From: Escherichia coli | GTDB taxonomy: Bacteria; Pseudomonadota; Gammaproteobacteria; Enterobacterales; Enterobacteriaceae | Strand: one strand, 5' to 3' | DNA length: 64,000 bases | NCBI RefSeq assembly: GCF_016026235.1 | Contig: NZ_CP065613.1 | In this document: positions 23,530-27,775 of the stretch, piece by piece | Layout: each line of letters starts with the position of its first letter | Position numbering within the stretch: position 1 is the stretch's first letter | The notes under the pieces: generated by a model | Told to the model about the DNA's origin: nothing | What the model saw: only the letters and a program-made list of their open reading frames with translations | The model's database searches: none | Made by a program: the position numbers and the translations under genes

Positions 23530-25533
23530 ATGATTATGAGTGAAAATGATACAATCCCAAAGAAGTCTACAAGTCAGATTAACAAAGCGGTATTCTTTAC
23601 ATCTGCTTTGCTAATTTTCCTTCTTGTCGCCTTTGCCGCCGTATTCCCGGATGTCGCCGACAAAAATTTTAAACTACTTCAGCAACAAATCTTCACGAAT
23701 GCCAGCTGGTTCTACATCCTTGCTGTGGCCCTGATTTTACTGAGTGTCACGTTCCTTGGACTCTCACGCTACGGTGATATCAAGCTGGGCCCGGACCATG
23801 CGCAGCCTGATTTCAGCTACCACTCCTGGTTTGCGATGCTTTTTTCGGCAGGGATGGGGATCGGCCTGATGTTCTTTGGCGTTGCCGAACCTGTAATGCA
23901 TTATCTTTCGCCACCCGTAGGCACTCCAGAAACCGTTGCGGCAGCTAAGGAAGCAATGCGTCTGACCTTTTTCCACTGGGGACTGCACGCATGGGCAATT
24001 TATGCCATTGTGGCGCTGATTCTGGCGTTCTTCAGTTACCGTCACGGTCTGCCTTTAACTCTGCGCTCCGCACTCTATCCCATTATTGGCGATCGCATAT
24101 ACGGACCTGTAGGACATGCGGTTGATATTTTCGCTGTTATAGGCACGGTCTTTGGCGTTGCGACATCACTGGGTTACGGTGTTTTGCAGGTGAATGCCGG
24201 TTTGAACCATCTTTTCGGGGTGCCCATCAATGAAACGGTGCAGGTAATTCTGATCGTGGTCATCACGGGGTTAGCGACGATTTCAGTGGTGTCCGGTCTG
24301 GATAAGGGAATACGTATCCTGTCTGAACTCAATCTGGGTCTGGCTTTGTTGCTCCTGGCGCTGGTCCTGTGTCTGGGACCAACCGTGCTTCTGCTGAAGT
24401 CATTTGTGGAAAATACGGGCGGTTATCTTTCGGAACTGGTGAGTAAAACGTTCAACCTTTACGCGTATGAGCCCAAGTCGAGCAACTGGCTGGGGGGCTG
24501 GACATTACTGTACTGGGGATGGTGGCTTTCATGGTCGCCGTTTGTGGGGATGTTCATCGCACGGGTCTCCCGCGGGCGAACCATTCGCGAGTTTGTCACC
24601 GGCGTGCTGTTTGTTCCCGCGGGTTTTACGCTAATGTGGATGACGGTGTTTGGTAACAGCGCGATCTATCTCATTATGAACCAGGGGGCCACAGACCTCG
24701 CCAATACTGTTCAGCAGGATGTGGCGCTGGCCCTGTTTAATTTCCTGGAGCATTTCCCGTTCTCTTCTGTGCTGTCATTCATTGCAATGGCGATGGTCAT
24801 CGTCTTCTTTGTAACGTCTGCTGATTCGGGGGCAATGGTTGTGGATACTCTGGCATCAGGTGGAGTGGCAAACACACCCGTCTGGCAGCGAATATTCTGG
24901 GCCTCGCTCATGGGCATTGTTGCAATTGCGCTTCTCCTTGCCGGAGGGCTAAGTGCGCTGCAAACGGTGACAATAGCGAGTGCATTGCCCTTCTCAGTGA
25001 TCTTACTAATATCTATATACGGACTTTTAAAAGCTTTGCGCCGGGATTTGACCAAGCGTGAAAGCCTGAGCATGGCGACAATTGCTCCTACGGCTGCACG
25101 TAACCCAATTCCTTGGCAGAGAAGGTTACGCAATATCGCGTATCTGCCGAAGCGATCTCTTGTGAAACGTTTTATGGACGACGTTATCCAGCCCGCCATG
25201 ACGCTGGTTCAGGAGGAACTGAACAAGCAGGGGACGATAAGCCACATTAGTGATGCAGTCGACGATCGTATTCGTCTTGAAGTCGATTTGGGCAACGAGC
25301 TGAATTTTATATATGAAGTGAGGCTTCGCGGGTATATCTCACCGACCTTCGCGCTCGCCGCAATGGATAATGATGAGCAGCAGACTGAACAACATCGATA
25401 TTATCGCGCTGAGGTTTATCTCAAAGAAGGCGGTCAAAATTATGATGTGATGGGCTGGAACCAGGAACAGCTGATTAATGACATACTGGACCAGTACGAA
25501 AAACACCTGCACTTCCTGCACCTGGTTCGTTAA
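23530..25533 (+). CDS. BCCT-family transporter, BetT-like (667 aa)
   Basis: BCCT signature WTLLYWGWWLSWSPFVGMFIARVSRGRTIREF; BetT-like C-terminal extension ending ..DILDQYEKHLHFLHLVR. Confidence 0.8.
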   Translation: MIMSENDTIPKKSTSQINKAVFFTSALLIFLLVAFAAVFPDVADKNFKLLQQQIFTNASWFYILAVALILLSVTFLGLSRYGDIKLGPDHAQPDFSYHSWFAMLFSAGMGIGLMFFGVAEPVMHYLSPPVGTPETVAAAKEAMRLTFFHWGLHAWAIYAIVALILAFFSYRHGLPLTLRSALYPIIGDRIYGPVGHAVDIFAVIGTVFGVATSLGYGVLQVNAGLNHLFGVPINETVQVILIVVITGLATISVVSGLDKGIRILSELNLGLALLLLALVLCLGPTVLLLKSFVENTGGYLSELVSKTFNLYAYEPKSSNWLGGWTLLYWGWWLSWSPFVGMFIARVSRGRTIREFVTGVLFVPAGFTLMWMTVFGNSAIYLIMNQGATDLANTVQQDVALALFNFLEHFPFSSVLSFIAMAMVIVFFVTSADSGAMVVDTLASGGVANTPVWQRIFWASLMGIVAIALLLAGGLSALQTVTIASALPFSVILLISIYGLLKALRRDLTKRESLSMATIAPTAARNPIPWQRRLRNIAYLPKRSLVKRFMDDVIQPAMTLVQEELNKQGTISHISDAVDDRIRLEVDLGNELNFIYEVRLRGYISPTFALAAMDNDEQQTEQHRYYRAEVYLKEGGQNYDVMGWNQEQLINDILDQYEKHLHFLHLVR

Positions 25534-25580
25534 TAGCAACATGCCGTCCTGGGGGCGGCAATTATTATCCCGGCCGCAAT

Positions 25581-26873
25581 ATGAGGGAATGCAGAATGAT
25601 TTCACGCTGGAAATGGATGCTGAAGCAGACAATTAAAAAACTATGGTTCAGGGCAACGTTATTCGCAATTGTCGCGATAATAACGGCCCTTTTATCAATT
25701 CTTTTTAAATCAATGATACCTGAGTCGGTTTCCGTGAAGGTTGGTGCGGAAGCAGTCGATAACATTCTGAACATACTGGCATCGAGTATGCTGGCAGTGA
25801 CCACATTTTCGCTGAGTATCATGGTCACAGCCTACGGTTCAGCCACTACTAATGTGACTCCCAGAGCTACGCGTTTAGTTGTTGAAGACGTCACCACACA
25901 AAATGTACTGGCCACCTTCATCGGTTCTTTTCTCTTCAGTCTGGTAGGGATTATTGCCCTCAATATGGGAGCTTATGGAGAAAGGGGGAGAGTCATTTTA
26001 TTCATTGTCACACTGGTTGTCATTGCCTTAATCCTCATCACATTGCTTCGCTGGATACAGCATTTGACCTCTCTGGGGAGGGTTGGTGAGACAACGGCAC
26101 AAGTAGAACAGGCGGCCATCGAAACATTTATTGCGAGAGCAAGAAATCCCTGTCTCGGCGGATATCCATGGCTTGAGAACAATGAACAGCCGAAAGGAAC
26201 GGTTGCAGTTTATCCGAAGAAGATTGGCTATGTTGAATATATTGATATGGTGAAACTTAGCAAGCTGCTGACCAATGATCCCCGTCATGTATACCTCGTG
26301 GCGCAGCCAGGCAGTTTCATACATCCGTCCATGCCAGTTTTGTACCTGAGTCAGGGCCAGGAGTCGTCAATCAACACCGATTTACTTGAGACGATTATTG
26401 TCTCGGATGCACGTTCATTTGCTCAGGATCCTCGATTTTGTCTTAGCGTCATGGCCGAAATAGCCTGCCGGGCCCTTTCCCCTGCAGTGAACGATCCTGG
26501 AACCGCCATTGATGTCATTGGCAGAGGTGTTCGTATACTTTCCACTTACGCGCAGAATAAATCTGATGAAATAGAAGTGAAATATCCTTCAGTACATGTT
26601 GCACCACTTCAGAATAACGATCTACTGGAAGACTTTTTCTCACCTGTCGCGCGCGATGGTGCCAGTATGAGGGAGATTCAGATAAGAGTCCTTAAAGGAC
26701 TGTCGATGCTGAGTAAAGGTTGGCCTGAGATATTTGCTGAAGCCGCACATATCCTGGCATTTGAAACATTAGAGCATGCAACTCGTGCTGACCATATAGA
26801 TTCTGATAGATATCTAATAAAATCAACTTATTATAATTTATTTAGTGGCGAATATTCTAATAAAAAAACATAG
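25581..26873 (+). CDS. DUF2254-family membrane protein (430 aa)
   Basis: N-terminal TM segments plus soluble domain; family assignment from memory. Confidence 0.5.
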   Translation: MRECRMISRWKWMLKQTIKKLWFRATLFAIVAIITALLSILFKSMIPESVSVKVGAEAVDNILNILASSMLAVTTFSLSIMVTAYGSATTNVTPRATRLVVEDVTTQNVLATFIGSFLFSLVGIIALNMGAYGERGRVILFIVTLVVIALILITLLRWIQHLTSLGRVGETTAQVEQAAIETFIARARNPCLGGYPWLENNEQPKGTVAVYPKKIGYVEYIDMVKLSKLLTNDPRHVYLVAQPGSFIHPSMPVLYLSQGQESSINTDLLETIIVSDARSFAQDPRFCLSVMAEIACRALSPAVNDPGTAIDVIGRGVRILSTYAQNKSDEIEVKYPSVHVAPLQNNDLLEDFFSPVARDGASMREIQIRVLKGLSMLSKGWPEIFAEAAHILAFETLEHATRADHIDSDRYLIKSTYYNLFSGEYSNKKT

Positions 26874-27118
26874 CTGCAGAGCAAGCAATTCGGTTGTTGG
26901 CAAGTCAAGGGCAAAGCATTCGCGTGAGAATGGGCGTATGCTTTGTGCCAAAAGCAAACGTTGCTAATTCTGCACTGTTCAGCGATGGCGCAGTAGCGAC
27001 AGGCACTGCCACTGTCCAGTCGGCAAAAGCGAACACTTTGCCACTGCGGGGATAAACTGATTGAAGCTCTCGCGCAAAATCACTTATTCTTTTGACAATA
27101 AAATGTAGGAGATGGGTC

Positions 27119-27775
27119 ATGACAGGCGAAAATCGTGGCCGGGGAAGGCCGCGAAAGACAGAAAGTACCTATGCAGATACTCGTAATGATCTGATCCGCA
27201 GTGGCCTTGAACTGCTGACGCAGAATGGTTTTCTTGCGACGGGAGTCGATGCCATTGTTAAAAATGCCAATGTCCCTAAAGGCTCATTTTATTACTACTT
27301 TAAGAGTAAAGAGGATTATGCTCAGACCGTTCTGAACGCCTATGACAGTTTCTTCGAGCATAAACTCAAAAAACATCTACATGAATCATCCTGCACACCA
27401 ATGGTACGTCTGGAAAATTTCATCAATGATGCCTGTGAGGGGATTAAAAAATACAATTTTACCCGCGGCTGCCTGGTTGGAAATATGATGCAGGAGAGTC
27501 CGGAGCTTCCCCAATCCTTCATTAAAGTACTACAGAATATTCTTGAGAGCTGGCAGGCACTTGTTGCGGCCTGCCTGTCCGACGCGTTATCTTCAGGCGA
27601 AATAAGTTCAAATATGAATAATACACAACTGGCGGCTATTTTCTGGAGTGGCTGGGAAGGTGCGGTAATGCGTTCCAAACTATATTGTTCTACTGAGCCA
27701 GTGTACGACTTCTGGAGCTATTTCAAAACCTCGGTACGCTATCAGTCTTCTCAGGAAGCAACAACTGGCCAGTAA
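27119..27775 (+). CDS. TetR/AcrR-family transcriptional regulator (218 aa)
   Basis: N-terminal HTH GFLATGVDAIVKNANVPKGSFYYYFKSKEDY; AGGAGA 8 nt upstream of ATG 27119. Confidence 0.8.
   Translation: MTGENRGRGRPRKTESTYADTRNDLIRSGLELLTQNGFLATGVDAIVKNANVPKGSFYYYFKSKEDYAQTVLNAYDSFFEHKLKKHLHESSCTPMVRLENFINDACEGIKKYNFTRGCLVGNMMQESPELPQSFIKVLQNILESWQALVAACLSDALSSGEISSNMNNTQLAAIFWSGWEGAVMRSKLYCSTEPVYDFWSYFKTSVRYQSSQEATTGQ

Follow-up and report, generated by a model that had tools for sequence, protein, structure and literature searches.

A betU-DUF2254 betaine-uptake cassette beside an orphaned acuR-type regulator gene: a probable junction of two modules in an Escherichia coli chromosomal island

A 64,000-nucleotide (nt) stretch of the Escherichia coli contig NZ_CP065613.1 (assembly GCF_016026235.1; hereafter the window) contains, between copies of the insertion sequences (IS) IS600 and IS2, three consecutive genes on the plus strand that encode a BCCT family transporter, a DUF2254 membrane protein and a TetR-family regulator (Table 1). 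A first-pass annotation, made from the letters of the window alone, had described them as one accessory module built around a transporter of unknown substrate; the places, open reading frames (ORFs), families and IS flanks that it gave are all correct. In our analysis, the region is in all likelihood the junction of two unrelated modules, a betU-DUF2254 betaine-uptake cassette and an orphaned AcuR-type TetR gene, lying in an IS-rich chromosomal island next to fec.

The division into two modules follows from the homology of the DNA on either side of the gap between the DUF2254 and TetR genes. In blastn comparisons with fetched loci, positions 23427-26963 of the window were 97-99% identical to DNA of Klebsiella and E. 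coli plasmids (97% for locus L002), and positions 26945-28024 and 29356-29468 were 86-90% identical to the chromosome of Enterobacter hormaechei (90% over 26945-28024 for locus L009). The break at 26945-26963 is sharp, and therefore argues for separate origins of its two sides. The left side is found widely: no fewer than 1642 plasmids, of which 1271 are from Klebsiella, carry betU-DUF2254 DNA, and a query that includes the TetR gene was covered to 80% or more in only 4 of these 1642 records. Among 5426 complete E. coli genomes, 1964 (36%) contain betU-DUF2254 DNA, approximately 586 of these (~30%) holding less than 80% of the pair, and 633 contain the junction with the TetR gene. The pair without the TetR gene was also seen in Enterobacter asburiae (at a prophage edge near icd), in Leclercia (ordinary chromosomal context), in Serratia (an integrase/P4-like island), in Pluralibacter, and in E. 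coli as cargo of a Rac-like prophage (a 94% allele). The spacer between betU and the DUF2254 gene has a constant length of ~62-66 nt throughout Enterobacterales and on mobile elements of many sorts.

A true three-gene module, in which the TetR protein would sense the transported quaternary amine and repress a BCCT-DUF2254 operon, would accord with the adjacency of the genes on one strand, with the retention of the exact junction in those 633 E. coli genomes, and with the general knowledge that the TetR-family protein BetI controls betT in K-12. Such a module is, however, difficult to reconcile with the homology break, with the occurrence of the pair without the regulator on some 1640 plasmids and in several genera, with the Enterobacter-type acuR-acuI DNA to the right of the break, or with the properties of the regulator itself, described below. 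The grouping of the three genes into a single unit is thus largely refuted, and we consider it very improbable. The first-pass annotation had itself allowed that the BCCT might prove to be an ordinary betT orthologue with unrelated neighbours; the neighbour is indeed unrelated in the case of the TetR gene, whereas DUF2254 is a conserved neighbour.

The regulator contains the Pfam domains TetR_N and TetR_C_13, scores 267.1 bits against the NCBIfam AcuR equivalog model (cut-off 247) and is named acuR in RefSeq; its best solved relative is 3BRU (E 1e-47). Against the NCBIfam BetI model it reaches 29.6 bits, where the cut-off is 201, and its resemblance to BetI (24% identity) is limited to the helix-turn-helix. 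On four Enterobacter contigs (L008-L011) the TetR gene is convergent with an intact gene for a 327-residue zinc-type dehydrogenase, with no BCCT or DUF2254 gene nearby, and this dehydrogenase is an AcuI (acrylyl-CoA reductase) equivalog (481 bits, cut-off 440). The native partner of this regulator is accordingly acuI and not a BCCT gene, which speaks against its being the regulator of the betU-DUF2254 pair. In the window, only residues 229-327 of AcuI (the last 99 codons) survive, split by IS2, an element that is also supported by its transposase ORFs and by RefSeq annotation; the Enterobacter homology stops at 29468, and the N-terminal 228 codons have therefore been deleted. On sequence grounds, the TetR gene is best read as an orphaned acuR that adjoins the cassette by chance.

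Table 1. Positions of the genes, repeats and insertion sequences in and around the betU-DUF2254-acuR region of the window.
Feature	Position	Strand	Remarks
IS600 transposase ORFs	22229-23382	+	orfA 22229-22528, orfB 22564-23382; left boundary of the cassette in the island; from the ORF list
betU upstream region	23427-23535	+	travels with the gene; plasmid homology begins at 23427
betU, BCCT family	23536-25533	+	665 residues; alternative ATG 23530 gives 667
GC-rich hairpin, then T-rich tract	25542-25560	+	begins 8 nt past the betU stop
DUF2254 gene	25596-26873	+	425 residues; alternative ATG 25581 gives 430
Inverted repeat, 12-nt arms	26912-26945	+	3' of the DUF2254 gene; right edge of the first module
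Junction of the two modules	26945-26963		switch in blastn homology
acuR-type TetR regulator gene	27119-27775	+	218 residues; TTG start 27092 gives 227
GC hairpin, AGGGGC-CGCA-GCCCCU	27777-27792		directly past the TetR stop, between the convergent acuR gene and acuI remnant
acuI remnant, residues 265-327 of 327	27836-28024	-	tblastn with E. hormaechei AcuI, 90% identity
IS2, inserted in the acuI remnant	28025-29355	-	1331 bp; 5-bp TTCAG target duplication; alignment gap against the IS2-free relative L004
acuI remnant, residues 229-266	29355-29468	-	Enterobacter homology stops at 29468

The starts of all three genes differ slightly between the longest ORFs and the RefSeq annotation of near-identical DNA, in which they fall a little later and have better ribosome-binding sites (23536, 25596 and 27119). 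The BCCT ORF as a whole spans 23530-25533 (667 residues), and its RefSeq relatives begin at 23536 (665 residues). For the DUF2254 gene the RefSeq start at ATG 25596, which has GAGG upstream, is more likely than 25581. For the TetR gene ATG 27119, which has AGGAG just upstream, is likewise more likely than TTG 27092; the ribosome-binding site of its own that had been ascribed to this gene is thus present.

In Rhodobacter sphaeroides, AcuR responds to acrylate derived from dimethylsulfoniopropionate (DMSP; PMC3017554), and its operator, TAATAGAC-n6-GTCTATTA, overlaps a leaderless promoter (Sullivan et al. 2011, PMC3017554). No match to this operator with three or fewer mismatches was found anywhere in the window, the best local matches having 7-8 mismatches, and a palindrome common to the upstream regions of betU and the TetR gene was looked for and not found. 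A DMSP/acrylate pathway was considered because of AcuR: the BCCT would import DMSP as DddT does, and AcuR-AcuI would deal with the resulting acrylate. The presence of acuR and an acuI remnant directly downstream of the pair is in keeping with this, as are the existence of DddT-type BCCT transporters (which appear among the solved relatives of the present one) and the behavior of R. sphaeroides AcuR. Yet acuI has been destroyed, and its DNA came to adjoin the pair only through a secondary junction, which led us to reject the pathway; furthermore, the region is without a gene for a DMSP lyase, the Rhodobacter operator is absent from the window, and the E values of the BCCT (1e-193 and 1e-97 versus 1e-67) put it far nearer to 8YBQ, BetT and BetP than to DddT. 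We regard this explanation as scarcely credible.

The transporter matches the Pfam BCCT profile (PF02028) over its full length (E 1.8e-198, residues 21-506, profile positions 1-485 of 485), and residues 507-667 form a C-terminal extension of ~160 residues that is part of an end-to-end alignment with K-12 BetT. Its solved relatives include 8YBQ, BetP, DddT and CaiT. The name BetU was not found among the source names of those members of its protein cluster that were read, and names alone could not settle its identity. Tn6062 of the IncHI1 plasmids (pAKU_1 / pSTY7) is a composite transposon of the IS1 type that has betU as one of its two coding sequences (Holt et al. 2011, PMC3139670). We located this transposon through exact matches of the published cloning primers on the Salmonella Typhi IncHI1 plasmid P-stx-12 (locus L097), which a second source states to carry Tn6062. 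Both primers match L097 exactly and ~3.4 kb apart (published 3405 bp), and they enclose a BCCT and a DUF2254 gene between IS1 copies. The BCCT of the window is identical to the Tn6062 BetU at 663 of 665 positions (99.7%), and the DUF2254 protein is identical to its Tn6062 partner at 409 of 424 (96%). IS1 flanks of the pair were seen in L097 and L003 only, and as the window has none, its copy is not Tn6062 itself.

The two-gene Tn6062 fragment (3405 bp) lets S. Typhi grow in lysogeny broth (LB) with 0.8 M NaCl (PMC3139670), and the uptake substrates of BetU are given as glycine betaine and proline betaine (PMC3139670, citing Ly et al. 2004); BetT is described as choline-specific and BetU as betaine-specific (Wood, PMC4411257, citing Ly et al. 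2004). The BCCT of the window is thus, to judge by its sequence, BetU, a betaine-specific osmoregulatory importer, with the substrate taken from the literature. Accordingly, neither the substrate nor the pairing, which had seemed to belong to no characterised system, needs to be left blank: the protein is nearly identical to a published betaine importer, and both coding sequences of Tn6062 had previously been cloned together and shown to confer osmotolerance. In the original work on BetU, the protein reportedly came from the uropathogenic E. coli strain HU734 and was isolated as a single gene by functional complementation, and betU is reported to occur in 32-34% of E. coli isolates. The picture of betU as an accessory gene, laterally transferred and with insertion sequences on its flanks, in about one E. 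coli isolate in three, fits the window, where IS600 lies to the left and IS2 to the right, and the 36% of complete genomes given above.

BetU is 42% identical to K-12 BetT along its full length, the C-terminal extension included, and is a paralogue of it rather than an orthologue. The BCCT gene is distinct from K-12 betT, cai and yeaV, and the three genes have no counterpart in the K-12 bet locus (the TetR protein being as distant from BetI as noted above), both as the first-pass annotation had supposed. The alternative of an additional choline transporter, a BetT orthologue that would feed the chromosomal betBA pathway, has to be weighed all the same, given that the protein scores 751 bits against the NCBIfam BetT model (cut-off 695), aligns with K-12 BetT to the very end of the C-terminal domain, and is called 'choline BCCT transporter BetT' in RefSeq. 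The identity is only 42%, however, the NCBIfam model is of the type 'subfamily' and not equivalog, betI, betB and betA were not found beside betU in any context examined, and the literature sets a betaine-specific BetU against a choline-specific BetT (PMC4411257), so that we judge a role in choline uptake to be quite improbable. The RefSeq records of the same or near-identical protein are themselves divided between 'choline BCCT transporter BetT' and 'BCCT family transporter'; many bear the former name because BetU falls in the BetT subfamily model, and that name conflicts with the published betaine specificity.

The partner of betU matches the DUF2254 family (Pfam PF10011, IPR018723) at E 5e-93 and 312 bits (cut-off 28.8) over profile positions 3-366 of 368. 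An AlphaFold2 model, built from an alignment of 105 relatives, is very confident, with a predicted local distance difference test score (pLDDT) of 95.3 and a predicted TM-score (pTM) of 0.92, and consists of four long N-terminal helices (~16-36, 51-86, 99-123 and 128-157) followed by an alpha/beta and helical soluble domain of ~265 residues. The four helices are read as transmembrane in this model, and since the N-terminus is basic and the number of helices even, the soluble domain would be cytoplasmic. Invariant residues in the alignment include R273, D300 and T303, and the motif LSPAVNDPGTA is conserved. A Foldseek search of the PDB with the model returned nothing at E <= 0.001, and a solved relative was not found; in a PDB profile search, residues 195-263 (window ~26178-26384) were marginally similar (E 0.04, 4GA4) to the C-terminal domain of thymidine/pyrimidine-nucleoside phosphorylases, and 5EP8 also appears in the Foldseek list. 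These two matches may be related to a 2012 prediction of a 'guanosine phosphorylase'. No functional inference for DUF2254 could be drawn from the Foldseek or the PDB profile results. In the literature, the family is mentioned only for a predicted knot or slipknot topology (PMC11184937), for a guess, made from gene neighbourhoods, at a guanosine phosphorylase (PMC3377989) and under a 'mechanochannel' label derived from STRING (PMC12440251), and no member has a known function.

Both genes of the pair appear constrained. The ratio of non-synonymous to synonymous divergence (dN/dS) is 0.01-0.11 for betU and 0.07-0.22 for the DUF2254 gene, values which indicate that the latter is maintained under purifying selection; in comparison with Leclercia and Serratia, the DUF2254 protein is 72% and BetU 95% identical. 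Synonymous divergence (dS), compared between 23536-26873 of the window and the loci L097, L002 and L099, is discordant between the two genes. Against Tn6062 (L097) it is 0.012 for betU and 0.106 for the DUF2254 gene, ~8-fold higher in the latter, and against the Rac-prophage allele (L099) it is 0.33 for betU and 0.087 for the DUF2254 gene. The discordance indicates recombination, with breakpoints between the genes or inside them.

The neighbourhoods of 80 diverse DUF2254 loci, on contigs taken at one genome per species, were surveyed for BCCT genes. A BCCT gene lies within 6 kb in 6 of the 80, and in 5 it is directly adjacent and on the same strand, against a chance expectation of well below one (a rough figure, which assumes a few BCCT genes per genome and was not calculated). 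Three independent arrangements were seen among these five: BCCT then DUF2254, in the BetU lineage; DUF2254 then BCCT, in Mixta and Pantoea (DUF2254 50% and BetU ~80% identical); and a 49%-identical BCCT followed by DUF2254 in a Rhizobium. The pairing noticed in the first pass is thereby real and recurrent, and it joins BetU to a partner with no characterised role. Genes for NhaA Na+/H+ antiporters and for ClC channels are also recurrent immediate neighbours of DUF2254, each at six loci in two or three lineages and mostly on the opposite strand; the distant DUF2254 proteins concerned (~50% identity) are from Pseudomonas (L031, L041, L045, L053), Rhizobiales (L030, L043), Caballeronia (L028) and Rhizobium (L066, L067).

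It might be asked whether BetU strictly requires DUF2254, as a subunit or as a regulator, the functional unit then being a two-protein transporter. The conservation of the pair with its constant spacer is what such a unit would lead one to expect, as are the adjacency of BCCT genes to distant DUF2254 genes in two further arrangements, the purifying selection on DUF2254, and an osmotolerance experiment in which both genes were used. On the other hand, 74 of the 80 surveyed loci have no BCCT within 6 kb, Pseudescherichia vulneris has betU alone, and in BL21-type E. coli, which carry the pair in the fec-adjacent island (L098, E. coli BL21, 5007-8582), betU is intact and IS911 cuts the DUF2254 gene at about codon 113. 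The incomplete pairs among the matching E. coli genomes (~30%), the terminator-like hairpin between the two genes, and the reported isolation of BetU as a single gene (Ly et al. 2004) also tell against it, and we consider an obligatory role unlikely. The most economical view, and our best guess, takes DUF2254 for a membrane protein with an accessory and non-essential part in the homeostasis of osmolytes or ions, co-selected with BetU and not needed for transport. More speculatively, and as a tentative suggestion that we hold to be rather doubtful, DUF2254 could represent a new class of inner-membrane component of osmolyte/ion homeostasis that works with BetU-type BCCTs, perhaps by gating or tuning BetU via its cytoplasmic C-terminal domain, or perhaps by serving as a valve for the release of solutes. 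In keeping with this are the purifying selection on the gene, its confident fold with no solved counterpart, the three independent arrangements beside BCCT genes, and the NhaA and ClC genes that adjoin it at other loci. If this were true, what many plasmids and prophages carry would be an osmoadaptation system of two proteins and not a single transporter.

The cassette also has conserved noncoding features. The ~100 nt upstream of betU contain motifs that are invariant in 10 independent contexts (TTTGCTA at ~23471-23477, and AATGGAA just before the ATG), and presumably hold the promoter of the gene. The stem of the hairpin that follows betU is kept in 8 lineages, some of which differ in both of its arms (window GCCGTCC/GGCGGC, Serratia ATTGCC/GGCAAT, Pluralibacter CACCGCCC/GGGCGGTG), and is retained in P. 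vulneris, where betU stands without DUF2254; it is probably a terminator of betU or an attenuator ahead of the DUF2254 gene. The inverted repeat at 26912-26945 lies inside the stretch common to the Klebsiella plasmids, which ends at 26963, and may be a terminator as well, with a z of -1.14 that is not significant against shuffles. The GC hairpin reported after the TetR gene in the first pass is likewise present; it may terminate transcription in both directions, and it folds with no better energy than shuffled sequence does (z -0.41). A scan of promoters and terminators yielded counts that were not above those of shuffled sequence.

Several further observations concern the carriers of the cassette. 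The Rac-like prophage allele (94% identical) lies at 5007-8345 of L099, from the chromosome of E. coli TBU0218_11-3CC, after kilR, sieB and ydaT-family genes. K-12 Rac carries the gene of another osmoregulatory transporter, trkG, at roughly this position. Pfam DUF2254 and TrkH occur together in one E. coli protein of 524 residues (P0080), suggesting that DUF2254 and TrkH cargoes are side by side or fused in some strains. On plasmids, genes for a SulP anion transporter and a universal stress protein (Usp) lie a few kb from the pair (L002 14185-16508; L003 9884-12208), and in the Serratia island two Usp genes flank it (L007 5844-6709); these neighbours hint at a larger region of stress cargo. 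A phage origin of the pair was considered and not borne out: the pair is absent from the phage records of INPHARED, although BetU and the DUF2254 protein each have a match among PHROG families to which no function is assigned. PADLOC gave no matches, and a defence system was discarded as a candidate.

The island itself is chromosomal and IS-rich, and in E. coli strains such as 042 it is found beside the fec operon. Its order is a shf-like deacetylase gene, capU, virK and lpxM/msbB2; IS600, annotated in RefSeq relatives as an IS3-like element of the IS600 family; the three genes discussed here; an 'alcohol dehydrogenase' scrap; and genes for a DeoR-family regulator, a ribokinase-family kinase, a FucP-like permease and an epimerase. 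Directly upstream of IS600, at 18172-22048, the first of these groups is a chromosomal cluster of shf-like polysaccharide deacetylase, capU, virK (DUF535) and lpxM/msbB2 genes, which is better known from the virulence plasmids of Shigella and enteroaggregative E. coli. At 30619-34996, the DeoR-family gene is divergent from the kinase, permease and aldose-1-epimerase-like genes, a layout that appears to resemble the deoQ-deoKPX locus for deoxyribose utilisation in pathogenic E. coli. Between the acuI remnant and the DeoR-family gene (window ~30400-30620; L004 16056-16282) lies a frameshifted pseudogene of an ACT-domain or acetolactate synthase small-subunit protein, a further scar in this IS-rich island.

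A number of points weigh against our interpretation and should be set beside it. The orphan AcuR could have been recruited to binding sites other than its own, and the junction with acuR is kept in 633 E. coli genomes. The link to the BetU of HU734 depends on Holt et al. having called SPAP0106 betU, and on Tn6062 having no other BCCT gene. The transporter does score above the cut-off of a model named for choline transport, and its betaine substrate is here taken from the literature. A consensus scan of the plus strand upstream of betU found no strong sigma-70 site, and the hairpins, each taken alone, are energetically indistinct from shuffled sequence. Last, as Holt et al. cloned both genes together, the published osmotolerance does not separate the contribution of BetU from that of DUF2254.

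With these reservations, a working scheme for the region can be proposed. BetU would import glycine betaine and proline betaine, as in the literature, driven by an ion gradient as is usual in the BCCT family, and its BetT-like cytoplasmic C-terminal extension would, by the same family resemblance, tune its activity to osmolality. The gene would be transcribed from its own short, co-travelling upstream region; the hairpin and T-tract behind it would end or attenuate transcription, and DUF2254 would be made at a lower level by read-through past the hairpin. The TetR protein would be an acrylate-responsive repressor of the AcuR type that was acquired together with acuI, the latter having been destroyed afterwards by deletion and by the insertion of IS2. 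It most likely regulates only itself and would have no part in the control of betU.

The transporter (BetU) and its pairing (the two coding sequences of Tn6062) are already known, as is the TetR family AcuR. The RefSeq name 'choline BCCT transporter BetT' is at odds with the published betaine specificity, and the adjoining 'regulator' is not to be taken as part of the betU system. DUF2254 is widespread and selectively maintained, and it rides with a proven osmotolerance determinant on plasmids that are mostly from Klebsiella; the carriers of the cassette include the globally dominant typhoid IncHI1 lineage and one in three of the complete E. coli genomes. What interest remains lies in DUF2254, as a tractable protein whose function could be assigned for the first time.

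The nearest known system is Tn6062, in which the gene order, spacer and hairpin are the same as in the window; both copies are IS-flanked and mobile, but Tn6062 has two IS1 copies, whereas the copy in the window is chromosomal, with IS600 on its left and the acuR module on its right. K-12 BetT, a choline:H+ symporter, shares with BetU the BCCT family, the length class and a homologous cytoplasmic C-terminal extension with a nearly identical motif at its end; it is linked to betIBA and has no DUF2254 neighbour, whereas BetU is without betIBA linkage and the substrates given in the literature differ. The DUF2254 protein of the window matches its family (PF10011) over the full length and has the conserved motifs of that family. 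The AcuR-AcuI(-DddL) module of R. sphaeroides is comparable in that the regulator of the window and its native Enterobacter neighbour pass the equivalog cut-offs for AcuR and AcuI; it differs in that acuR and acuI form an operon in R. sphaeroides and are convergent in the window and in Enterobacter, in that the R. sphaeroides acuR is leaderless and that of the window has an AGGAG Shine-Dalgarno sequence, and in that the window has no such operator and an acuI cut down to a 99-codon remnant split by IS2.

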